NCBI RefSeq assembly: GCF_050920415.1
Contig: NZ_CP169309.1
Direction: 5' to 3' (one strand)
Source: Escherichia coli
GTDB lineage: Bacteria > Pseudomonadota > Gammaproteobacteria > Enterobacterales > Enterobacteriaceae
DNA: 64,000 nucleotides
Positions 2,662 to 24,208 of this stretch are shown piece by piece. Every line of letters starts with the position of its first letter. Within the stretch, counting starts at the first letter, position 1. The translations under genes and the position numbers were made by a program. The notes beneath the pieces were generated by a model, which saw nothing but the letters and a program-made list of their open reading frames with translations, was not told where the DNA came from and ran no database searches.

Positions 2662-3320
2662 TGTTCTGGCGAATTTTCCGTCTTGAACTGCGCGTGGCGT
2701 TTCGTCATAGCGCCGAAATCGCTAACCCGCTGTGGTTCTTCCTGATTGTTATTACCCTTTTTCCGCTCAGTATCGGTCCGGAGCCGCAACTGCTGGCGCG
2801 TATTGCCCCTGGCATTATCTGGGTTGCCGCGCTGCTTTCATCCTTGCTGGCACTGGAACGACTGTTCCGTGACGATTTGCAGGACGGCAGTCTTGAACAA
2901 TTGATGTTGTTGCCGTTACCCTTGCCCGCCGTTGTGCTGGCGAAGGTGATGGCGCACTGGATGGTAACCGGTCTGCCGTTACTCATCCTTTCGCCTCTGG
3001 TAGCAATGCTACTGGGAATGGATGTTTATGGCTGGCAAGTGATGGCGCTGACGCTGCTGCTGGGAACCCCAACGCTTGGTTTTCTCGGTGCACCGGGCGT
3101 GGCGCTGACAGTGGGACTTAAACGCGGTGGTGTGCTGCTCAGCATACTGGTGTTACCGCTGACTATCCCATTACTCATCTTTGCCACCGCCGCGATGGAC
3201 GCGGCTTCGATGCATTTGCCCGTTGACGGGTATCTGGCAATTTTAGGCGCGTTGCTGGCAGGCACCGCGACATTAAGTCCTTTTGCGACGGCGGCAGCGT
3301 TACGAATCAGCATTCAATAA
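2661..3320 (+). CDS. ccmB: CcmB, haem exporter membrane protein
   Basis: 219-aa polytopic membrane ORF. TAATG overlap with ccmA. Fits ccm operon order. Confidence 0.93.
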   Translation: MFWRIFRLELRVAFRHSAEIANPLWFFLIVITLFPLSIGPEPQLLARIAPGIIWVAALLSSLLALERLFRDDLQDGSLEQLMLLPLPLPAVVLAKVMAHWMVTGLPLLILSPLVAMLLGMDVYGWQVMALTLLLGTPTLGFLGAPGVALTVGLKRGGVLLSILVLPLTIPLLIFATAAMDAASMHLPVDGYLAILGALLAGTATLSPFATAAALRISIQ

Positions 3321-4305: not shown

Positions 4306-4781
4306 ATATTCGCCGTAAAAACCGTTTGTGGATTGCCTGTGCCGTGCTGGCGGGGCTGGCGCTGACTATCGGCCTGGTATTGTATGCGCTGCGCTCGAAT
4401 ATCGATCTTTTTTATACGCCGGGGGAAATTCTCTACGGCAAGCGTGAAACTCAACAGATGCCGGAAGTCGGTCAGCGTCTGCGCGTTGGCGGGATGGTAA
4501 TGCCGGGTAGCGTGCAGCGCGATCCCAATTCGCTAAAAGTAACGTTCACTATTTACGACGCTGAAGGTTCAGTAGATGTCTCTTACGAAGGCATTTTGCC
4601 GGATCTGTTCCGTGAAGGGCAGGGCGTTGTGGTGCAGGGCGAACTGGAAAAAGGCAATCATATCCTTGCGAAAGAAGTACTGGCGAAACACGATGAAAAC
4701 TACACGCCGCCAGAAGTCGAGAAAGCGATGGAAGCTAATCACCGTCGCCCGACGAGTGTTTATAAGGGCCCAGCATCATGA
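4302..4781 (+). CDS. ccmE: CcmE, periplasmic haem chaperone
   Basis: 159 aa with an N-terminal anchor. [13 protein letters not shown] haem-binding His motif. Confidence 0.95.
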
Positions 4782-6721
4782 TGCCAGAAATTGGTAACGG
4801 ACTGCTGTGCCTGGCGCTAGGAATTGCGCTGTTGCTGTCCGTGTATCCGCTATGGGGCGTGGCGCGCGGGGATGCGCGCATGATGGCTTCTTCGCGCTTG
4901 TTTGCCTGGCTGCTATTTATGTCTGTGGCTGGCGCATTTCTGGTGCTGGTCAATGCTTTCGTGGTGAATGACTTTACTGTCACCTATGTTGCCAGCAACT
5001 CCAATACCCAGCTTCCGGTGTGGTATCGCGTGGCGGCAACCTGGGGTGCGCATGAAGGCTCGCTACTGCTGTGGGTGCTGCTGATGAGCGGCTGGACCTT
5101 TGCGGTGGCGATTTTTAGTCAGCGTATTCCGCTGGATATTGTGGCCCGTGTACTGGCGATAATGGGGATGGTCAGTGTCGGCTTTTTGCTGTTCATTCTC
5201 TTTACCTCTAACCCGTTCTCACGCACGTTGCCAAACTTCCCGATTGAAGGGCGCGATCTTAACCCGCTGTTGCAGGATCCAGGGCTGATCTTCCACCCGC
5301 CCCTGCTCTATATGGGGTACGTCGGTTTCTCGGTGGCGTTTGCTTTTGCCATTGCTTCTTTGCTGAGTGGTCGTCTGGACAGCACTTACGCACGCTTTAC
5401 CCGTCCGTGGACGTTGGCCGCGTGGATTTTCCTGACGCTCGGCATTGTGCTCGGTTCCGCATGGGCCTATTACGAACTCGGCTGGGGCGGCTGGTGGTTC
5501 TGGGATCCGGTAGAAAACGCCTCGTTTATGCCGTGGTTGGTGGGTACTGCGCTGATGCACTCGCTAGCGGTCACTGAACAACGCGCCAGCTTCAAAGCGT
5601 GGACATTACTGCTGGCAATCAGTGCCTTCTCGTTGTGTCTGTTGGGGACTTTCCTCGTGCGTTCCGGCGTGCTGGTATCGGTACACGCGTTTGCGTCTGA
5701 TCCGGCGCGCGGTATGTTTATCCTCGCTTTTATGGTGCTGGTGATTGGCGGTTCGCTGCTGCTGTTTGCCGCGCGTGGACACAAAGTTCGCTCACGCGTA
5801 AACAATGCGCTGTGGTCGCGGGAATCTCTGCTGTTAGCGAACAACGTTTTGCTGGTCGCCGCAATGCTGGTGGTATTGCTGGGGACGCTGCTGCCGCTGG
5901 TGCACAAGCAACTGGGACTGGGCAGCATTTCGATTGGCGAACCGTTCTTCAACACCATGTTTACCTGGCTGATGGTGCCGTTTGCGCTACTGCTGGGTGT
6001 CGGTCCTCTGGTGCGCTGGGGGCGCGATCGCCCACGTAAAATCCGCAATTTATTGATTATCGCCTTCATCTCTACGCTGGTGCTGTCTCTGCTGTTGCCG
6101 TGGCTGTTCGAAAGCAAAGTTGTGGCGATGACGGTGCTCGGCCTGGCAATGGCCTGCTGGATTGCGGTGCTGGCAATTGCGGAAGCTGCGCTGCGTATTT
6201 CACGCGGCACGAAAACCACCTTTAGTTATTGGGGCATGGTGGCGGCTCACCTGGGGCTGGCGGTAACAATTGTTGGTATTGCCTTTAGCCAGAACTATAG
6301 CGTTGAGCGTGATGTGCGCATGAAGTCCGGTGATAGCGTCGATATTCATGAATATCGCTTCACCTTCCGTGATGTCAAAGAAGTGACTGGTCCGAACTGG
6401 CGTGGCGGTGTGGCGACTATCGGCGTAACGCGAGAGGGTAAACCGGAAACGGTGCTGTATGCGGAAAAACGTTATTACAACACTGCCGGGTCGATGATGA
6501 CCGAAGCGGCGATTGACGGTGGCATCACGCGTGACCTGTACGCAGCGCTCGGTGAAGAGTTGGAAAACGGCGCGTGGGCTGTGCGTCTTTACTACAAACC
6601 GTTTGTTCGCTGGATTTGGGCGGGCGGGCTGATGATGGCGTTGGGCGGGCTGCTGTGCCTGTTTGATCCTCGCTATCGTAAGCGCGTGAACCCGCAGAAA
6701 ACTGCGCCGGAGGCTGTATGA
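4778..6721 (+). CDS. ccmF: CcmF, cytochrome c haem lyase subunit
   Basis: 647-aa polytopic [15 protein letters not shown] motif. 4-nt overlaps with both neighbours. Confidence 0.95.
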
Positions 6722-10781: not shown

Positions 10782-13376
10782 ATGCATCACTCTGGTTCTG
10801 TTTCTCTTTGTCGTTCCGCAATATCTGTTCTGGTGGCTACAGCGTTATATTCTCCCATAGCATTGGCATCAACTGTTGAGTATGGAACGACTGTTGATGG
10901 TGTTGTCCTGGAAAAAGATATCCAGCTGGTTTATGGGACCGCAAATAATACGAAAATCACTCCCAGCGGAGAACAGCATATAAAAGAATGTGGTGTAAGT
11001 AATAATGCTGAAATAAACGGAGGGTATCAGTACATTGAAGCATATGGCTCAGCAGAATACTCAGTATTAAATGATGGTTATCAAATTGTTCAATTGGGTG
11101 GTGCAGCAAACCAAACTACCATCAATAATGGTGTGTTACAGGTTTATGGAGCTGCTAATGAAGCCACTATTAAAGGCGGGCGCTTACTCGTTGAAACCGA
11201 AGGCATTGCCATCTTCGCCGTTATCGAAAAGGGAGGACTACTGGAGGTTAAAGATGGCGGATTGGCATTTGCGGTAGATCAAAAAGCAGGCGGTGCAATC
11301 AAAACAACCACGCGGGTTATGGAGGTATTCGGAACAAATCGTCTCGGTCAGTTTGATATCAAAGATGGGGTTGCTAACAATATGCTGTTGGAAAACGGCG
11401 GAAGTTTGCGGGTTGAAGAGAATGACTTCGCTTATAATACCACTGTGGATAGTGGTGGTTTACTGGAGGTTATGGATGGCGGGACTGCAACTGGCGTTGA
11501 CAAAAAAGCAGGCGGAAAATTAATTGTTTCAACGAATGCGCTGGAAGTGAGTGGTACAAACAGTAAAGGCCAATTTAGCATAAAAGATGGCGTGTCTAAA
11601 AATTATGAACTAGATGACGGTTCCGGGCTAATTGTTATGGAGGGCACTCAGGCAATTGACACTATCCTTGATGAGCATGCAACCATGCAATCGTTGGGAA
11701 GAGATACTGGTACGAGAGTGCAGGCACATGCAGTTTATGATCTTGGTCGGTCAGTGCAGAATGGAAGCATAAAATATTCCTCAAATGCTATATCTGAAAA
11801 TATGGTTATCGATAATGGTCGCGCTAATGTCTGGACTGGCACAATGGTTAACGTAACAGTCAGAGGAAATGAGGGCATTATTGATGCAATGGCGCTGGAA
11901 TTAAATTTTTATACACCGGCTACATTATTAGGTGACGTGGTGGTTTCTGATGGTGCATCTTTAAGAACGCATGGCGCAGTGGATACCAGTAAAGCAGATG
12001 TTTCTATCGAAGAGAGTTTTTGGGCTATTATTGCCGATATCAATAATATAAACCAAAACACCCGTCTCAATTTAGCAAACCTGGTGATGTCAGACGGAAC
12101 TGTCGTTATGATGGCTGAGCCAGTGACTCGTTCATCTGTGACGGCAAGTGCGGAAAATTTCACTACATTGACCACTAATACCCTGTCGGGAAACGGCAAT
12201 TTTTATATGCGCACCGATATGGCCAATCACCAGAGCGATCAGCTTAACGTCACCGATCAGGCAACAGGTAATTTCAAAATCTTCGTTACGGACACCGGTG
12301 CCAGCCCGGCAGCAGGAGATAGCCTTACACTGGTAACAACGGGCGGCGGTGATGCTGCATTTACCTTGGGCAATGCCGGAGGCGTTGTTGATATCGGTAC
12401 GTATGAATATATCTTGCAAGATAATGGCAACCATAGCTGGAGTCTGGCAGAGAATCGCACGCAAATAACTCCTTCAACCACTGATGTGTTGAATATGGCG
12501 GCAGCACAACCGCTGGTATTTGATGCAGAACTGGATACCGTACGTGAGCGTCTTGGTAGCGTAAAAGGCGTTAATTACGATACGGCGATGTGGAGTTCGG
12601 CAATTAACACCCGCAACAACGTAACCACTGATGCGGGAGCTGGCTTTGAGCAAACATTGACGGGGCTGACGCTCGGTATCGATAGCCGTTTCTCCCGTGA
12701 AGAAAGCAGCACAATTCGTGGCTTATTCTTTGGTTACTCTCATTCTGATATTGGTTTTGATCGCGGCGGTAAAGGCAATGTCGATAGCTATACCCTGGGG
12801 GCTTATGCCGGTTGGGAGCATCAGAACGGTGCCTATGTTGATGGGGTGGTGAAAGTTGACCGTTTTTCCAACACCATCCATGGCAAGATGAGTAATGGGG
12901 CAACAGCGTTTGGCGATTACAATAGTAACGGCGCGGGTGCTCATGTCGAGAGCGGGTTCCGTTGGGGGGAGGGGTTGTGGAATGTAAGGCCTTATCTGTC
13001 CTTTACCGGCTTTACCACTGATGGTCAGGACTATACGTTATCAAATGGTATGCGAGCGGATGTGGGAAATACCCGCATATTACGCGCTGAAGCGGGAACG
13101 GCGGTAAGCTATCACATGGACCTGCAAAACGGTACGACGCTGGAACCCTGGCTGAAAGCCGCCGTGCGTCAGGAATACGCCGATTCTAACCAGGTGAATG
13201 TTAATGACGACGGCAAATTTAATAATGACGTGGCTGGAACCCGTGGCGTTTATCAGGCTGGGATAAGGTCATCGTTTACCCCGACGTTAAGCGGTCATTT
13301 GTCAGTCAGCTATGGCAATGGCGCGGGGGTAGAATCACCGTGGAATACCCAGGCGGGTGTGGTCTGGACGTTCTGA
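10782..13376 (+). CDS. yejO: YejO, AIDA-type autotransporter adhesin (intact)
   Basis: 864 aa with a signal peptide. The passenger has repeated GGLLEV-DGG-A-VD-KAGG modules. The C-terminal beta-barrel ends ...AGVVWTF. Confidence 0.9.
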   Translation: MHHSGSVSLCRSAISVLVATALYSPIALASTVEYGTTVDGVVLEKDIQLVYGTANNTKITPSGEQHIKECGVSNNAEINGGYQYIEAYGSAEYSVLNDGYQIVQLGGAANQTTINNGVLQVYGAANEATIKGGRLLVETEGIAIFAVIEKGGLLEVKDGGLAFAVDQKAGGAIKTTTRVMEVFGTNRLGQFDIKDGVANNMLLENGGSLRVEENDFAYNTTVDSGGLLEVMDGGTATGVDKKAGGKLIVSTNALEVSGTNSKGQFSIKDGVSKNYELDDGSGLIVMEGTQAIDTILDEHATMQSLGRDTGTRVQAHAVYDLGRSVQNGSIKYSSNAISENMVIDNGRANVWTGTMVNVTVRGNEGIIDAMALELNFYTPATLLGDVVVSDGASLRTHGAVDTSKADVSIEESFWAIIADINNINQNTRLNLANLVMSDGTVVMMAEPVTRSSVTASAENFTTLTTNTLSGNGNFYMRTDMANHQSDQLNVTDQATGNFKIFVTDTGASPAAGDSLTLVTTGGGDAAFTLGNAGGVVDIGTYEYILQDNGNHSWSLAENRTQITPSTTDVLNMAAAQPLVFDAELDTVRERLGSVKGVNYDTAMWSSAINTRNNVTTDAGAGFEQTLTGLTLGIDSRFSREESSTIRGLFFGYSHSDIGFDRGGKGNVDSYTLGAYAGWEHQNGAYVDGVVKVDRFSNTIHGKMSNGATAFGDYNSNGAGAHVESGFRWGEGLWNVRPYLSFTGFTTDGQDYTLSNGMRADVGNTRILRAEAGTAVSYHMDLQNGTTLEPWLKAAVRQEYADSNQVNVNDDGKFNNDVAGTRGVYQAGIRSSFTPTLSGHLSVSYGNGAGVESPWNTQAGVVWTF

Positions 13377-13507: not shown

Positions 13508-13578
13508 GTATAACTAAATGATTTTAAATAATATTCTTTATTCAACTTTTAAATCGTATAACCAAACGTATAACTAAA
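13508..13578 (+). repeat. Three copies of the 11-mer GTATAAC(T/C)AAA (putative integrase arm-type sites)
   Basis: Copies at 13508-13518, 13556-13566 and 13568-13578. The same 11-mer occurs four times at the other end of the island. Confidence 0.6.
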
Positions 13579-13660
13579 ATAATTTGCTGAAAAAGTGTAC
13601 AATTTCAGCAATAATTGCCCTAGCGACTATCATCCTGCTCCCCGGATTTTTTCCGGTTAA

Positions 13661-17527: not shown

Positions 17528-17734
17528 TATTGATCGATAAAAGTAATAGATAAATCATTTTCTACCTGAAAATTAGATTATATTTTTTCTGATTATTCTC
17601 AGAGAGGCAAAGCCATTGACGCATTTTTGCTATTGAAGCAATATTAAGACTCGTCATCCTGGCGATAAAAACTCCTTTGTCGTGTAAAAGCGCCTCCGGT
17701 AACAGCAATCGAGGGCGCTTTTTTTTGCGCCTGT

Positions 17735-17947
17735 TTTTTTGTAAATGTTTTCGGGAACGCTCCAGTGATGAACAAAAAACAACCTGATTCGACACTAAAA
17801 ATTTTTATTCCTCAATATATCAATAACTTATAGTGGTGGTGATGGTGCCATAAAAATCAAAAAATGCGCCTTTTTCCGCGCCCGCCCGCCCCGTGGACAG
17901 GCCCACCAAGCCAGGAGTACCTACAAAAAAGCCGGATTGCTCCGGCT
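17735..17947 (-). promoter_or_regulatory. Conserved intergenic cassette B (paralogue of cassette A)
   Basis: Same order of blocks as cassette A: hairpin AGCCGGA-GCAA-TCCGGCT followed by T6 (17925-17947), the 36-nt block at 17860-17895, AGGTTGTTTTTTGTTC (17770-17785), 24 nt, and TTTACA (17740-17745). Confidence 0.55.
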
Positions 17948-17965
17948 GTGTGCTCACTTCTTCGG

Positions 17966-18217
17966 TTATTCTCCAGCGCTTTTAACGTTGATGGTTGTAA
18001 CCTGTTCCGCTTCGGCAATCTCCCATTCTGTCAGCGTGGCAAAGTTTGCCGCCGCTGTGGTCATGAATGCGCTTATCAGGTCGGGATGTGCTTTCGCGTA
18101 TCCTTCCCCCGTGTTGCGGTCGATGATTTTTATCGCCACTCTCAGCCAGTGCTCTGTAAGGTCAATGGCGCGGTTATGCTGCTTCTTCTGATTATTAAGT
18201 TTTCCTGATGTGCGCAT
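17966..18217 (-). CDS. Hypothetical protein (83 aa)
   Basis: ORF MRTSGKLNNQKKQHNRAIDLTEHWLRV..., followed by the cassette B terminator. No family recognised. Confidence 0.5.
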   Translation of the reverse strand: MRTSGKLNNQKKQHNRAIDLTEHWLRVAIKIIDRNTGEGYAKAHPDLISAFMTTAAANFATLTEWEIAEAEQVTTINVKSAGE

Positions 18218-18261
18218 TTTTATTTTTACCCCCTCGTTTAAAAAGTTTTGAGTTGTGCCTC

Positions 18262-18500
18262 CCCTTGTCTACCTTATCTACCTTACTGGCCACCATGCCA
18301 GTAATGGCGCGGCTTTCAGTGGGGTAGAGTGCTTTTATCCACTATCTACCCCGTATCTACCTCCCTGTCTGATTCAGGTAAAATCAGGTAGAGAGGGTAG
18401 ATAGTAGGTAGACAGTAAAAAAAGGCTGTCTACCCAAGTTAATGTACTGAATTAAATGTATTTTTCTTTACTCAGGTAGACAGGGTAGACAGCCATTGCA
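18262..18500. repeat. Iteron array (putative replication origin of the island)
   Basis: Eleven copies of (G/A)TCTACC or its complement GGTAGA(C/T/G), starting at 18267, 18276, 18322, 18344, 18355, 18387, 18396, 18407, 18428, 18475 and 18484. They flank an AT-rich stretch (18436-18470). The array lies immediately 3' of the primase-helicase gene. Confidence 0.7.
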
Positions 18501-18505
18501 ACAAA

Positions 18506-20254
18506 TTATAAAAACGCGTCGCAATCGTCTGTTGTTATTGCGTTAGTCTGCGTTACTCCTTTAACTTTCCGCGTAATATATTCATGTCCGTAAACTTTCG
18601 CGGCTGGCTTCATAGCCTTGCCAAAGTCATTTACGTTTAGCGGTTTGCTCCTGCCTGCGTACGCCATAAACGCCAGATAGACGCGGTAAAGGCTGTTTCT
18701 GGTCGTGTACTTCACTGAATCGCCACCGCCGCCCATCATCAGGCCGCGTGCTTCCTCCAGAAAATTCAGGAACTGGCAAAACTCAATAACCGGATCCGTC
18801 TGTTGCTTTATTGCCAGTGCTTCATCACCGTCACGCTGTTCAATGAGTAAAGCCCGTGCCTTTTCAGGGTCGGCAAAGTTCGCCAGCAAGCGGCGGATAA
18901 TGACAGGGATTTCAGCCGCGATCTTTTCCGGTAGCTCCCTGTCTTTTTCTGCCTCGCTTACGATGTTATCGAACCGGAATATCACCCGACGACGTGCCAC
19001 ACCTCCGGCCCGTTCGGTGAATATCATCGGATTGTTATTGGTTGCCAGCACCACCGCCCTGATTACCGCCGTAAAACGCTTTTCATATTTCGGGTTAATT
19101 TCCACGGGGTCGCCGCCCGTGATTTTCTTGATGCCCGTTCCTTCGCCTGTATATTTCTGCTGGTCTGCCAGGACGATAAGACGACTCCCGACAACCTGCG
19201 CACGCCCACCAGCATCATCAAGCGATGTCATTTCAGCGCTTACCGTGTTTTGTTTCCCTGCCAGAAGGCTGGCTATGTGTGTGAATGTACTTTTACCGCT
19301 CCCGCCGTCTCCGGTGGCCTCAATAAACATCTGCCAGTCGTACCGGTTCGCCATAATCATGTACAGCGCGGCACATATACGCATCATCTTGCTCGGGTCT
19401 TTTCCGGCTGCGTGCTCAAGCCATTTATGAAAGTTTGGCGCGTTATCGCGGATGTTCTCCCCGGGTGCTGGTGGCGTGTACTCAATGCCGTTGTGCGTGG
19501 TGATCCAGTTCTCCGGCGTGTGCGGGGAAAATTCCCCCGTTTTCAGGTCAAGCGCACCATTGGCGAACGGCAGCAAATCGCCGGACGGCTCGCCCATTGG
19601 TTCGGCAATAACTTTTAACGCTTCCACGGCGTTATTGATTACGCGCTTGCTGAAAGTGGCCCTGTGCTCTGAATAGATAGCCACCATTTCGCGGCTCAGC
19701 TCCATTGTGCTGACCGGACACCATACCCCGCCGCGCCATACGTGAACGATTTCACTTTCAGGATGCACACAAACGCCATCAAAGCGCTCGGCAAGCAGCT
19801 GCGCGCGCTCACTGTCTGCCATTTGTGCCAGTTGCGTATTTTTCTGCTCCGGCATGGTAAGCCCTGCGGCAATATTTTCACGCTCAGCATTCAGATAGCG
19901 CCGCCAGTTTTCACACTTCTGGACGTGCATTCCTTCGGGGTAAAAATTTGCGTCCTGAATATCTGCCGCCGCCAGCTTCTGACCAATCTTTTTGGTCTCC
20001 ACCAAATCCAGTTCTCCGGCCTGGTACAGCCTTACGCGCTTTTTCCCATCCGGAACAATTTTCAGTGCATCAAGTTCGGCAAGCTGATTTGGCCCAAGCC
20101 ACACAGGCGGCACATTATCGCCGGATGCGGGGCCATCCTGCTCCTGCCATTGTTTCGCGTGCGACCAGGCATCACTACCCGCGAAAATAATTACCTCTGT
20201 GTCTTTGTGTTTTATTCCGCGTGGCTGTTTTTTTACGTTCGGTGCCAGTTTCAT
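18506..20254 (-). CDS. P4/D5-family primase-helicase (replication initiator, SF3 NTPase)
   Basis: 582 aa. Walker A GDGGSGKST, Walker B LIVLADQ. A D5_N-like region (LPFANGALDLKTGEFSPHTPENWITT) and a C-terminal DNA-binding-like domain. Confidence 0.8.
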   Translation of the reverse strand: MKLAPNVKKQPRGIKHKDTEVIIFAGSDAWSHAKQWQEQDGPASGDNVPPVWLGPNQLAELDALKIVPDGKKRVRLYQAGELDLVETKKIGQKLAAADIQDANFYPEGMHVQKCENWRRYLNAERENIAAGLTMPEQKNTQLAQMADSERAQLLAERFDGVCVHPESEIVHVWRGGVWCPVSTMELSREMVAIYSEHRATFSKRVINNAVEALKVIAEPMGEPSGDLLPFANGALDLKTGEFSPHTPENWITTHNGIEYTPPAPGENIRDNAPNFHKWLEHAAGKDPSKMMRICAALYMIMANRYDWQMFIEATGDGGSGKSTFTHIASLLAGKQNTVSAEMTSLDDAGGRAQVVGSRLIVLADQQKYTGEGTGIKKITGGDPVEINPKYEKRFTAVIRAVVLATNNNPMIFTERAGGVARRRVIFRFDNIVSEAEKDRELPEKIAAEIPVIIRRLLANFADPEKARALLIEQRDGDEALAIKQQTDPVIEFCQFLNFLEEARGLMMGGGGDSVKYTTRNSLYRVYLAFMAYAGRSKPLNVNDFGKAMKPAAKVYGHEYITRKVKGVTQTNAITTDDCDAFL

Positions 20255-20782: not shown

Positions 20783-21011
20783 GGTGCGCCCCTTGAATAT
20801 CTGCGGTAAGAATTTTGCCTGCCTCATTCAGCGCCATATCAGCACTAAGTTGCATAACCGCCAGCGAATGAGGAACGAAAGCCCCTGCATATTCTGTTTC
20901 ACTGGTGGCGTGCTTATGCGCCATGTCAGCAATAACAGAAATATCAATAAGCGCATCCATCAGCGTTTTGATGGCTTCGGCGGCTGCGTCCGGACGGGGG
21001 TTATTGCACAT
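20775..21011 (-). CDS. Hypothetical protein (78 aa)
   Basis: The ORF overlaps the Icd-like gene stop by 11 nt. Operon context only. Confidence 0.45.
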   Translation of the reverse strand: MCNNPRPDAAAEAIKTLMDALIDISVIADMAHKHATSETEYAGAFVPHSLAVMQLSADMALNEAGKILTADIQGAHHA

Positions 21012-21207
21012 GGCGCACCTCCTGACGAATACGGGCGGCGAATACCATCACGCAGCCAGCCGGGGATTGCTGGCGGGCTTCCTGTTCGCTGGTGGCCTCG
21101 ATGGTAATCACGCGCGGTTGTGCCGTGCTCAGGGCGATAAAACGCCAGATGTATTTATTCAGGTTGTGCGAATCCCGCCCTTGCGGGTGTGTGGTATGAT
21201 TTCTCAT
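21001..21207 (-). CDS. Icd-like (host cell division inhibitor-like) small protein
   Basis: This is the last 68 codons of the 367-aa ORF: MRNHTTHPQGRDSHNLNKYIWRFIALS...ATSEQEARQQSPAGCVMVFAARI. The pattern is recalled from Icd-like proteins of P4-type prophages. Confidence 0.5.
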   Translation of the reverse strand: MRNHTTHPQGRDSHNLNKYIWRFIALSTAQPRVITIEATSEQEARQQSPAGCVMVFAARIRQEVRHVQ

Positions 21208-21291
21208 AGCTGCCTCGATACTCTTTCTATCGTTGGTGGTTAGACGCCCTGCATGTGTGCCACCACTGCGGGGCGTTGCGTTTTTTGATGC

Positions 21292-21347
21292 ACACGTGTT
21301 AAGGTGTACACCTACAAAGCAAAAACATAACGCCATAGGTGTACACA
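21292..21347. promoter_or_regulatory. Palindromic operators upstream of and overlapping the RHH gene start
   Basis: ACACGTGT (21292-21299), AGGTGTACACCT (21302-21313, a perfect 12-mer) and AGGTGTACAC (21338-21347, abutting ATG 21347). Confidence 0.55.
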
Positions 21348-21541
21348 TGTCAACAGTTATTAAGCGCGATAAAAAACAAAAAGGCACAGGAAAGACCCCA
21401 CCGTTCCATATGCGTATAGTTCCTGAATTGAAGGAGCAGTTTGATAACGAAGCCAGTAACGATGGAGTAAGTCTTGCCAACTGGCTTAAAGAGTTGGGGC
21501 GCGCCGAACTAAAGCGACGCGGCATTGAACCTAAAGGCTGA
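21347..21541 (+). CDS. Ribbon-helix-helix (Arc/MetJ/CopG-like) DNA-binding protein
   Basis: 64 aa from MSTVIKRDKKQKG. FHMRIVPELKEQFDNEASNDGVSLANWLKELGRAEL fits a beta-strand/helix/helix RHH pattern. Confidence 0.55.
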   Translation: MSTVIKRDKKQKGTGKTPPFHMRIVPELKEQFDNEASNDGVSLANWLKELGRAELKRRGIEPKG

Positions 21542-21544
21542 TGT

Positions 21545-21664
21545 ATGACCGATAACAAACTTTCTCTAACAGAGAATAAACCATCAGGCTTCTTACCAAG
21601 AAAAATCCTTGATGAGATCAAACGCCGCCAGCGTAAAAAATCCAAAGGAGCAGACACGGAATAG
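21545..21664 (+). CDS. Micro-ORF, 39-aa highly basic peptide
   Basis: MTDNKLSLTENKPSGFLPRKILDEIKRRQRKKSKGADTE. It starts 3 nt after the RHH stop. Found by hand translation, as it falls below the ORF-track cutoff. Confidence 0.3.
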   Translation: MTDNKLSLTENKPSGFLPRKILDEIKRRQRKKSKGADTE

Positions 21665-21667
21665 CTT

Positions 21668-21832
21668 ATGCAACAAATACCATACTGGCTTGGCTCTCTG
21701 TTTGTATTTGCATTTCTCATGAAATATTGCATTAGCAATGAACTTGTCGGTAATGAAAGTGCATGCGCGAGCGCTGAAAAAAATATTCCACTTCTCGTAT
21801 ATGAAAACGAAAGCCCTGTGAACCGCAATTGA
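21668..21832 (+). CDS. Micro-ORF, 54-aa peptide with hydrophobic N-terminus
   Basis: MQQIPYWLGSLFVFAFLMKYCISNE... It starts 3 nt after the previous stop. Found by hand translation. Confidence 0.3.
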   Translation: MQQIPYWLGSLFVFAFLMKYCISNELVGNESACASAEKNIPLLVYENESPVNRN

Positions 21833-22108
21833 GCGAAATTTAATGAATTCACTCTTTGCCCACCAGCCGCAAATGTGGCATTGTTGGCGATGCTCATGCG
21901 TTGGGGATAACGTGTAGCTTGTGTCGAAGGGCCATCGTGACAGGTGGCCTTTTCTTTACCTGTTATCTGGCAATTGTGGCGCTTCGTCACACGGTTGATA
22001 TAATTCCCCTGCACTGATCCATTTTTTTCGCAGCAGGTTAATTGTTCGCAAGGGCGCTCCGGCAACGGGGCGCTTTTTGTTATGTTCATCACGTTACGCC
22101 TCACACCA

Positions 22109-22315
22109 TTACGCAGCCGTTCCGCGCGCTTCTTCCTCGCGCTCTTTCAGCCAGGCCAGCACTTCATCTTCATACCAGCCAACACGACGCAGACCGATTT
22201 TGAAGCCTTTCGGAAATTTTCCGGCGTTGATCATGTCCTGTAGCGAACTGTCTGCCTTGATGCGCAGAATATTTTTTACTTCCTGACGGGTAAGAATTTT
22301 TCTGATTGTTTCCAC
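22109..22315 (-). CDS. alpA: AlpA-family (MerR-like HTH) phage/satellite transcriptional regulator-excisionase
   Basis: 68 aa. ILTRQEVKNILRIKADSSLQDMINAGKFPKGFKIGLRRVGWYEDEVLAWL is the typical AlpA/Xis HTH pattern. Confidence 0.8.
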   Translation of the reverse strand: METIRKILTRQEVKNILRIKADSSLQDMINAGKFPKGFKIGLRRVGWYEDEVLAWLKEREEEARGTAA

Positions 22316-22829: not shown

Positions 22830-24071
22830 TTATACGGCACGGATACCCCTTTTACCACTGGCTATGGTCACTCCGGTTGCTGCGGCCTCTACAAATTCCC
22901 CCCACCAGCGCATAAGCACCACGCGCTTTTCCAGGTAGTTACTTCGGTTATATGCTCGCCTTACCTCGTTCGTGTCCACGTGTGCGAGTGCGGCCTCGAT
23001 TACGTCCGGCTCGAATCCTTCCTCGTTCGCTGCTGTGCTGAATATGGCGCGTAATCCATGAGACACCAGCACGCCAGCGAATCCCATTCGCCGCAATGCT
23101 GCGTTGGCGGTCTGGCTGTTCATAGGCTGCCGTGGGTCTTTCAGGCTAGGGAAAACGTGCTCGCGGTGGTGGCTGATTGGCTTCATGGCCTCCAGTACCG
23201 CCATAGCCTGACTACAAAGCGGGATAACGTGATCACGCCGCATCTTCATGCGTCCGGCGGGGATCGTCCATTGTTGCGCGTCCATGTCGATTTCTTCCCA
23301 GCGTGCTGACGATGCTTCAACCGGACGGGTTACAGTCAGTAGCTGCCATTCAATCAGTAATCTGGTCTGCCGTTCTGTTGCTGATACGGATAAAGCCTGC
23401 ATAAGCTCCGGCAACTGTTCGGGGCGGATTGTTGGCATATGTTTTTTTACAGGGGAGGGGAACGCCTTACGCACATTCATAGCCGGATTGGCATCAATCA
23501 GCCCACTGTTGGCGGCGTAATCCATTACCTCATTAACGCGCTGTAAAACCCGCTTGAGTGTTTCCAGGTTGCCGCGCTCCTTGATGGGTGTAAGCACCTC
23601 AACGAACCTTCGGGCAGTGAGGGTATCTATTGGCGTGTTGCCGATGAACGGGAATACATATTTATCCAGCGAACGCCAGATGTCTTTAATCGTGTTGGGG
23701 GCCAGATTCTGGCTGATTTTCACCTGGTACCATGCCGCCGCCACATTTTCGAACGTGTTCCCTTGTCTTCGGGCCTCTGCCTCTCGTTTTTTCTTCTCAT
23801 GGTCCTGCGGGTCAGTTCCGGCACTGATTAACGTCCTGTACTCGCTACGGCGTTTTCTGGCATCAGCCAGGGAAACATCTTCAAGAGATCCAAAACTCAG
23901 CAATATTCTTTTTTTGTCCGATGGTCGGTAGTAGGAAAATCGCCAGAGTTTTGATCCGGACGGTTTTACCAGGAGAAAAAGCCCACCGCCGTCCTGTAGG
24001 GTGTACTCCTTTTGCGCTGGTCTGGCTGCTTTGATCTGCACTGTGGTTAATGGGGGTGTTTTTCTCGCCAT
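22830..24071 (-). CDS. int: P4/CP4-57-type tyrosine integrase
   Basis: 413 aa from MARKTPPLTTVQIKAARP...GGLFLLVKPSGSKLWRFSY (the N-terminal arm-binding domain typical of P4-type integrases). The catalytic region contains HGLR...ALAH...Y. The gene is adjacent to a tRNA. Confidence 0.9.
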   Translation of the reverse strand: MARKTPPLTTVQIKAARPAQKEYTLQDGGGLFLLVKPSGSKLWRFSYYRPSDKKRILLSFGSLEDVSLADARKRRSEYRTLISAGTDPQDHEKKKREAEARRQGNTFENVAAAWYQVKISQNLAPNTIKDIWRSLDKYVFPFIGNTPIDTLTARRFVEVLTPIKERGNLETLKRVLQRVNEVMDYAANSGLIDANPAMNVRKAFPSPVKKHMPTIRPEQLPELMQALSVSATERQTRLLIEWQLLTVTRPVEASSARWEEIDMDAQQWTIPAGRMKMRRDHVIPLCSQAMAVLEAMKPISHHREHVFPSLKDPRQPMNSQTANAALRRMGFAGVLVSHGLRAIFSTAANEEGFEPDVIEAALAHVDTNEVRRAYNRSNYLEKRVVLMRWWGEFVEAAATGVTIASGKRGIRAV

Positions 24072-24102
24072 ATGTCTATGATTCCACACGAAAAAACAGG
24101 GT

Positions 24103-24158
24103 TTTAGTTATACGGCTTTAGTTATACGCCAGCCCGTATAACTAAACGTATAACTAAA
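24103..24158. repeat. Four copies of the 11-mer GTATAACTAAA (two inverted, two direct), putative integrase arm-type sites
   Basis: Inverted copies at 24103-24113 and 24117-24127. Direct copies at 24136-24146 and 24148-24158. Confidence 0.6.
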
Positions 24159-24208
24159 AAATCCGGCTGATAGCTTATAAATCCGGTGATGTTCGGTGAC
24201 TAAAAACC

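Follow-up and report, generated by a model that had tools for sequence, protein, structure and literature searches.

An iteron field beside a P4-alpha-like initiator gene in an Escherichia coli satellite island, very probably its replication origin of the EcCICFT073 type

In the 64,000-nucleotide stretch of Escherichia coli DNA analysed here (contig NZ_CP169309.1; hereafter the window), a short sequence recurs eleven times, in both orientations, just downstream of the gene for a 582-aa helicase. What is this field for, and which protein reads it? An earlier note, made from the letters alone, had taken it for the origin of a PICI-like island and the 582-aa protein for its initiator. We consider it highly probable that a phage-inducible chromosomal island (PICI) starts its vegetative replication at this field, from an origin of the E. 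coli EcCICFT073 replicon type and with a P4-alpha-like cognate initiator. The origin is already known, having been published and functionally tested on identical DNA in 2018; there is no new element here. What is added is comparative: a layout common to P4 ori1 and to Escherichia, Serratia, Morganella and Klebsiella-type satellites, and an iteron that changes with the DNA-binding domain of the initiator.

Eleven iterons in two inverted units

The hexamer TCTACC occurs 27 times in the window, counting either strand, against 13.3 ± 4.0 expected from shuffles, and 11 of these copies are packed into 18268–18489. With the 16 copies in the remaining 63.8 kb taken as Poisson background (lambda = 0.056 per 222 bp), the probability of at least 11 in 222 bp is 3.8e-22, which bears out the eleven-copy cluster of the earlier note. 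There is no second cluster in the island, whose other copies are isolated singles at 13328 and 17561. The field begins 17 bp past the stop of the initiator gene (18506), immediately 3' of it; the starts of the iteron cores are given with the other parts of the region in Table 1.

Some details of the repeats needed correction. The copy listed at 18322 starts at 18323, and the 7-mer (G/A)TCTACC offered as the repeat unit describes nine of the eleven copies, those at 18323 and 18387 both reading CTCTACC. The flanked consensus is cT(G/A)TCTACCy, about 10 bp, and the iteron 8-mer of the field is TGTCTACC. An extended form, TCAGGTAGA, had been ascribed to several copies but occurs exactly twice, at 18384 and 18472, besides a degenerate copy, TCAGGTAAA, at 18374; a degenerate iteron, GGTAAA, lies at 18377 in the central spacer.

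On the plus strand the copies are oriented ++-++ | ---+--, at consecutive spacings of 9, 46, 22, 11, 31, 9, 11, 22, 46 and 9, a near-perfect dyad about 18375. The field is made of two units, inverted relative to each other. Unit 1, in gene orientation, reads ++[AT]-+++ with spacings of 9, 46, 22, 11 and 9; unit 2 is unit 1 mirrored, with one copy fewer (inverted repeats I1/I2). The AT-rich core is present as described, with 83% A+T over 18436–18470, the GC minimum of the intergenic region, although the string quoted for it ran to 37 nt and not 35. It is not, however, the centre around which opposed clusters are arranged, as had been thought. The dyad axis lies elsewhere. The AT-rich stretch belongs to the gene-proximal arm alone, of which it forms the 40-bp spacer, flanked by the copies at 18429 and at 18475/18484; the mirror spacer of the other arm is 42% A+T.

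A scan of 17900–18700 found neither a sigma-70-like promoter nor a terminator inside the field, so transcription from pri-rep probably reads through it. Between two iterons, at 18335–18343, lies TTATCCACT, which agrees at 8 of 9 positions with the DnaA-box consensus, TTATCCACA. It occurs only in the CFT073/Nissle/O26 sub-allele and not in more diverged homologues, and for this reason it is not counted as a required part.

Table 1. Features of the origin region and the surrounding island (window coordinates)
Feature	Coordinates	Strand	Basis or remark
Initiator gene 'Pri-Rep', 582 aa	18506–20254	-	Pfam; PDB matches; P4 alpha identity; EcCICFT073 identity
N-terminal domain of initiator, aa 1–146	19817–20254	-	
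Whole intergenic gap between pri-rep and next ORF, 288 bp; the published EcCICFT073 'ori' segment	18218–18505		CFT073 identity; primer mapping
Origin unit 1, gene-proximal, six iterons (18484, 18475, AT spacer, 18429, 18407, 18396, 18387)	18387–18489	-	
AT-rich spacer, 78–83% A+T, presumed DNA-unwinding element	18435–18474		
Central spacer at dyad axis, CCCTGTCTGATTCAGGTAAAATCAG	18362–18386		Inverted repeat I7
Origin unit 2, gene-distal, inverted, five iterons (18268, 18277, GC-richer spacer, 18323, 18345, 18356)	18268–18361	+	
Conserved non-iteron 22-bp block CCAGTAATGGCGCGGCTTTCAG, within GC-richer spacer of unit 2	18298–18319		Homologue comparison
RBS region (GAGGGGG) and leader of 83-aa ORF; in the gap, outside the iteron field	18218–18250	-	
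83-aa ORF, PHROG 1231 (no assigned function), co-oriented with pri-rep	17966–18217	-	
HTH/AlpA-like gene	22109–22315	-	
Integrase gene	22830–24089	-	
tRNA-Pro	24290–24366		

Identity with the published EcCICFT073 origin

Positions 18200–18520 are 100% identical, over 321 bp, to 1383981–1384301 of E. coli CFT073, where the counterpart sits between a gene annotated 'DNA primase family protein' and a hypothetical gene. The matching CFT073 DNA is the island EcCICFT073, and the earlier call of a SaPI/PICI-type origin directly after pri-rep thus coincides with a published ori. Fillol-Salom et al. (2018, ISME J, PMC6092414) put the EcCICFT073 rep and putative ori into the thermosensitive plasmid pKO3-blue, as pri-ori, pri-delta-ori and delta-pri-ori constructs. 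The pri-ori plasmid gave colonies at 44 °C and the delta-rep plasmid gave none; deletion of ori brought the colony number down significantly without abolishing colonies (PMC6092414).

The primers of that study tie the tested segment to the window. The distal cloning primer of Table S6, rep-2cNotI, maps to 18195–18215, its printed text being one C short of a CC pair; the delta-ori primer rep-3cNotI maps to 18502–18522 and the delta-pri recombineering arm to 18458–18517 (PMC6092414). By this map the published 'ori' is approximately 18216–18501, the interval that the earlier note had marked for cloning. The upstream cloning primer, rep-1m, has no match in the window, consistent with the diverged 5' part of the initiator gene. 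Cloning the field with its gene into a suicide vector, which had been suggested as a check, has effectively been done already on identical DNA, with a 91%-identical initiator (PMC6092414). The sequence together with this experiment establishes where the origin lies, its iterons and AT-rich core, and that plasmid maintenance depends on rep and ori.

The window initiator and EcCICFT073 Pri-Rep are 91% identical overall, with two substitutions over about aa 146–582 and a diverged N-terminal 145 aa. Since those 145 residues differ from the tested protein, we infer the function of the exact initiator/ori pair of the window from that of the CFT073 pair. Both components are widespread: the exact window initiator is recorded on more than 1,000 contigs, and a recognisable copy of the ori segment is found in 563 of 5,426 complete E. 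coli genomes.

A P4-alpha-like initiator without a detectable primase domain

The 582-aa protein has an N-terminal 140-aa domain, a D5_N plus DUF5906 SF3 helicase core and a C-terminal winged helix of the Pox_D5/P4-alpha type. Pfam reports D5_N, DUF5906 and Pox_D5 only, and NCBIfam reports TIGR01613 over residues 227–494. Residues 486–574 match the P4 alpha origin-binding domain (PDB 1KA8, E = 1e-6), residues 141–571 are 40.5% identical to P4 alpha (aligned alpha residues ~326–756), and the protein also matches PDB 7OLA (E = 1.5e-14). The proposal that it is the cognate initiator is upheld by the origin-binding match and the identity to alpha. Its description as a primase-helicase is another matter: no primase domain was detected by Pfam or NCBIfam, and the alignment to P4 alpha starts only at about alpha residue 326. 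The word 'primase' in its name is an annotation label without domain support. Priming might be by the host or by the N-terminal 140-aa module.

No model matched the N-terminal ~146 aa in Pfam (E ≤ 10) or NCBIfam, the only match being PHROG 2850, which has no assigned function. Members of this domain family, 76 representative clusters among 1.84 billion proteins, always place it N-terminally, fused to one of four unrelated NTPase cores: D5_N/DUF5906 (SF3), AAA_25 (RepA-like), DUF927 or VapE. The matches of a full-protein homologue search were all at least 98% identical and thus offered no diversity for alignment or structure prediction. A single-sequence AlphaFold model of the domain shows an alternating strand-helix pattern at low confidence (pLDDT 62), and with this model Foldseek returned nothing from the PDB below E = 0.01.

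The initiator gene is a mosaic: among 12 related loci identity is 50–99% over the 5' 430 nt and 90–99% over the 3' 1.3 kb. How the 5' part varies depends neither on the 3' part nor on the ori sub-allele, a pattern that indicates recombination, with breakpoints close to codon 145 and where gene and ori meet.

Conservation of the iterons and their pairing with the initiator

For footprinting, the window was compared with ten E. coli loci whose intergenic gaps are 63–96% identical to its own and whose adjoining 1.3 kb of gene is 90–99% identical. Across the 11 loci, the iteron cores keep 55 of their 66 positions unchanged, whereas outside the cores 63 of 222 positions are invariant (Fisher p = 1e-15); nine of the eleven iteron copies are intact in at least 10 of the 11 loci. 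Two further blocks are conserved across the E. coli homologues: the RBS leader of the next ORF, in which AAAACTTTTTAAACGAGGGGGTAAAAAT is invariant in all of them, and the nearly invariant 22-bp CCAGTAATGGCGCGGCTTTCAG, which is absent from the Serratia equivalent. The core of the latter block, AATGGCGCGG, is found again at 18164–18173, within the 83-aa ORF.

A replaced or diverged initiator goes with a different iteron, and the comparison of sequences points to allele-specific pairing. A swap is seen in the syntenic tRNA-Pro island of strain JNEC-KY177, where a RepA-type (AAA_25) helicase replaces the SF3 protein. The 202-bp gap downstream of it contains zero copies of TCTACC and instead 8–9 copies of CTCACTT around an AT-rich core. 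The two initiators have the N-terminal domain in common, at 58% identity; with the domain shared and the iterons different, iteron specificity does not reside there.

Divergence gives a similar picture. Homologues of the initiator at 41–53% identity occur in Serratia aquatilis, Morganella morganii and the 16.5-kb element vB_KppS-Ant; a scan of genome contigs gave only three loci. The diverged homologues keep the ++-+++--+-- layout with a changed core: TGTTCAC in Serratia, TGTTCAT in Morganella and GTTCACC in vB_KppS-Ant. The Serratia and vB_KppS-Ant loci show the double-unit pattern of the window, and AT-rich spacers stand in the equivalent place in P4 ori1 and in the Serratia, Morganella and vB_KppS-Ant loci. 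The C-terminal domains of these diverged homologues contain PRxxRKYLYHAYLAYME, as P4 alpha does, where the window protein has KYTTRNSLYRVYLAFMA. Within E. coli, alleles with LNVN(D/E)FG go with T(G/A) before the iteron core and those with LNVA(E/D)FS go with C(N), in 6 versus 6 loci; this association may reflect a single evolutionary event and is only suggestive of pairing. The iteron of the O157/RM13514 allele is CCTCTACC.

More distant relatives vary further. In Serratia phage Scapp (2332–2829) there are about eight copies of another repeat, AAAAGTGCAA. Pasteurella phage Pmp8, with a 33% identical initiator, has a terminator-like hairpin downstream (2665–3100) and no obvious iterons, so the origin layout is not universal for the protein family.

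The island around the origin

The window island has yejO on one side and tRNA-Pro/yejM on the other, and over 12 kb it is 99.6% identical to strain OkiPb01679. All its genes are on the minus strand, in the order integrase, AlpA-like HTH, Icd-like remnant, small ORFs with a DUF4222 gene, pri-rep, ori, 83-aa ORF, a ClpP-protease/major-capsid fusion and PerC. The 83-aa ORF is syntenic across all related islands. In most of them an SSB gene follows it; none is present in the window island, where 17528–17977 was compared with 4629–5060 of a related locus (the flanks align and tblastn finds no remnant). The same pri-rep–ori module recurs in islands that differ in where they are inserted and in their morphogenesis modules, and EcCICFT073 and the window island are separate islands.

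A 16-bp exact direct repeat, AAACGTATAACTAAAA, at 13564–13579 and 24144–24159 brackets the island from yejO to the integrase/tRNA-Pro side. The pair is a candidate attL/attR core, which would make the island about 10.6 kb. A 367-aa ORF with a GTG start (21001–22104, minus strand) has no Pfam match and overlaps a truncated Icd-like pseudogene and a short divergent ORF in the closest annotated genome; it is probably not a real gene.

A model for initiation, and other uses the repeats might have

If the field is the origin, the C-terminal winged helix of the 582-aa initiator would bind the ~10-bp iterons, cT(G/A)TCTACCy. The eleven sites, in two inverted units resembling P4 ori1, would assemble the initiator on both sides of the 40-bp AT spacer at 18435–18474. 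That spacer would melt, the initiator's own SF3 helicase ring would load there, and theta replication of the excised island would follow. Contact of the iterons by the C-terminal domain and melting within the AT spacer are the steps that we infer.

Could the repeats instead be operators or autoregulatory sites, at which the initiator or a different regulator of the island acts, controlling transcription of the 83-aa ORF and the capsid module, or limiting copy number by handcuffing, with no part in initiation? It is true that the gap is probably transcribed, that no terminator follows pri-rep and that the RBS of the next ORF is conserved; in P4, crr occupies the corresponding place behind alpha and acts in cis without being the start site. 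Plasmid iterons, moreover, commonly serve initiation and control alike. We nevertheless think the operator explanation improbable. The region has no sigma-70-like promoter, unit 1 has the layout of P4 ori1 with the AT-rich spacer included, and deletion of exactly this segment impaired plasmid replication (PMC6092414). A control role could coexist with origin function but would not replace it.

It is less probable again that the region works through its folded shape, with the repeats as no more than the stem of a DNA cruciform or of a long hairpin in the RNA that reads through from pri-rep. Folding of the 288-nt strand gives -106.8 kcal/mol (z = -7.5 versus shuffles), but inverted binding sites give so strong a fold automatically. 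In the consensus fold of ten homologues nearly every conserved pair joins one iteron to another, and the long spacers stay unpaired. Most of its 'compensatory' pairs are iteron flanks that change together in every copy, as expected for a repeated protein site, and Rfam at E ≤ 1 returned only sub-threshold miRNA and snoRNA look-alikes, owing to the hairpin shape. We attach next to no weight to a role of the field in packaging (as cos or pac) or in recombination (as an att arm), even though short repeats in two orientations are also found where integrases bind their arm sites and where terminases bind. It is 4.3–5.8 kb from the field to the integrase gene and tRNA-Pro, the cos deletions published for EcCICFT073 used unrelated sequences (PMC6092414), and what the repeat follows is the allele of the helicase and not the integrase or capsid module.

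As a reading of the field, then, the replication origin stands far ahead in our judgement, and a reader working from the sequence can correctly call a satellite origin together with its initiator. The residual interest of the locus is small and lies in the double unit of P4-ori1 type, the conserved 22-bp block and the missing primase domain. The comparative points could guide specificity-swap experiments and studies of incompatibility between co-resident satellites.

Comparison with known replicons

In P4 (NC_001609), crr directly follows the alpha stop and ori1 is 4.5 kb away. Read in the orientation of the initiator, P4 ori1 is ++[43-bp step; 78% AT spacer]-+++, with spacings of 10, 43, 22, 11 and 10. 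Unit 1 of the window has the same number, order and orientation of repeats at 9, 46, 22, 11 and 9, so that the P4 ori/crr-type logic invoked by the earlier note is reproduced by the six gene-proximal iterons. Both spacers are about 40 bp and 78% AT, and the helicase and origin-binding domains are common to the two initiators. The P4 type-I repeat, TGTTCACC, is present six times in ori1 and bound by alpha; the counterpart in the window is TGTCTACC, and T(G/A)TCTACC agrees with type I at 6 of 8 positions, the two central ones differing. The Serratia and vB_KppS-Ant relatives, in contrast to the field here, have TGTTCAC(C). The architectures differ in that P4 ori1 is far from alpha and needs a separate crr, a bipartite arrangement about 4.5 kb apart, whereas the window has a single compact field in which the ori1-like unit adjoins the gene and has a second, inverted unit as its partner. 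Alpha also has a ~325-aa N-terminal primase region, which the window initiator does not.

P4 crr, two 120-bp repeats just 3' of alpha, occupies the same genomic position as the window field. In both, the same iteron is clustered in both orientations, with a pair 9 bp apart followed by a 43–46-bp spacer. In contrast to the window, with its inverted units, no terminator and a unit resembling a start site, crr is a tandem direct duplication preceded by a terminator.

These likenesses lead us to a tentative proposal, which we think somewhat doubtful as it stands. The PICI origin might be a head-to-head fusion of two P4-ori1-type units, combining the ori1 and crr of P4 within 230 bp. The AT-rich unit would be the start site, and the inverted unit, with CCAGTAATGGCGCGGCTTTCAG, would serve as an enhancer in cis, like crr, or as a place where a further factor docks; priming would be by the host or by the N-terminal 140-aa module. 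The 2018 study stated that no other known bacterial replicon shares the origin organisation of EcCICFT073 (PMC6092414). The comparison with P4 ori1 qualifies that statement on organisation, and the head-to-head arrangement, if true, would qualify the uniqueness it claims. A search of a literature library found no published comparison of the layouts of a PICI origin and P4 ori1.

The nearest known system remains EcCICFT073 itself, with the origin at the same site 3' of pri-rep, the same eleven iterons and the same AT-rich core; the published ori deletion takes out exactly the window's segment. The islands are otherwise distinct. That of CFT073 lies between phoQ and roxA and has separate capsid and decoration genes, whereas the window island lies by tRNA-Pro/yejM, has the ClpP-protease/capsid fusion and lacks an SSB gene, and the N-terminal 145 aa of the two initiators are not the same.

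SaPI origins follow the rep helicase gene directly on its 3' side; in them an AT-rich region stands between two sets of iterons, and Rep and iteron are paired allele by allele. The likeness of EcCICFT073 to this organisation was stated in the original work (PMC6092414), and the window agrees with it: its iterons flank an AT-rich region 3' of rep, and the pairing changes with the helicase. The likeness described here is one of layout, and SaPIs differ in usually having separate pri and rep genes and in their Gram-positive hosts.
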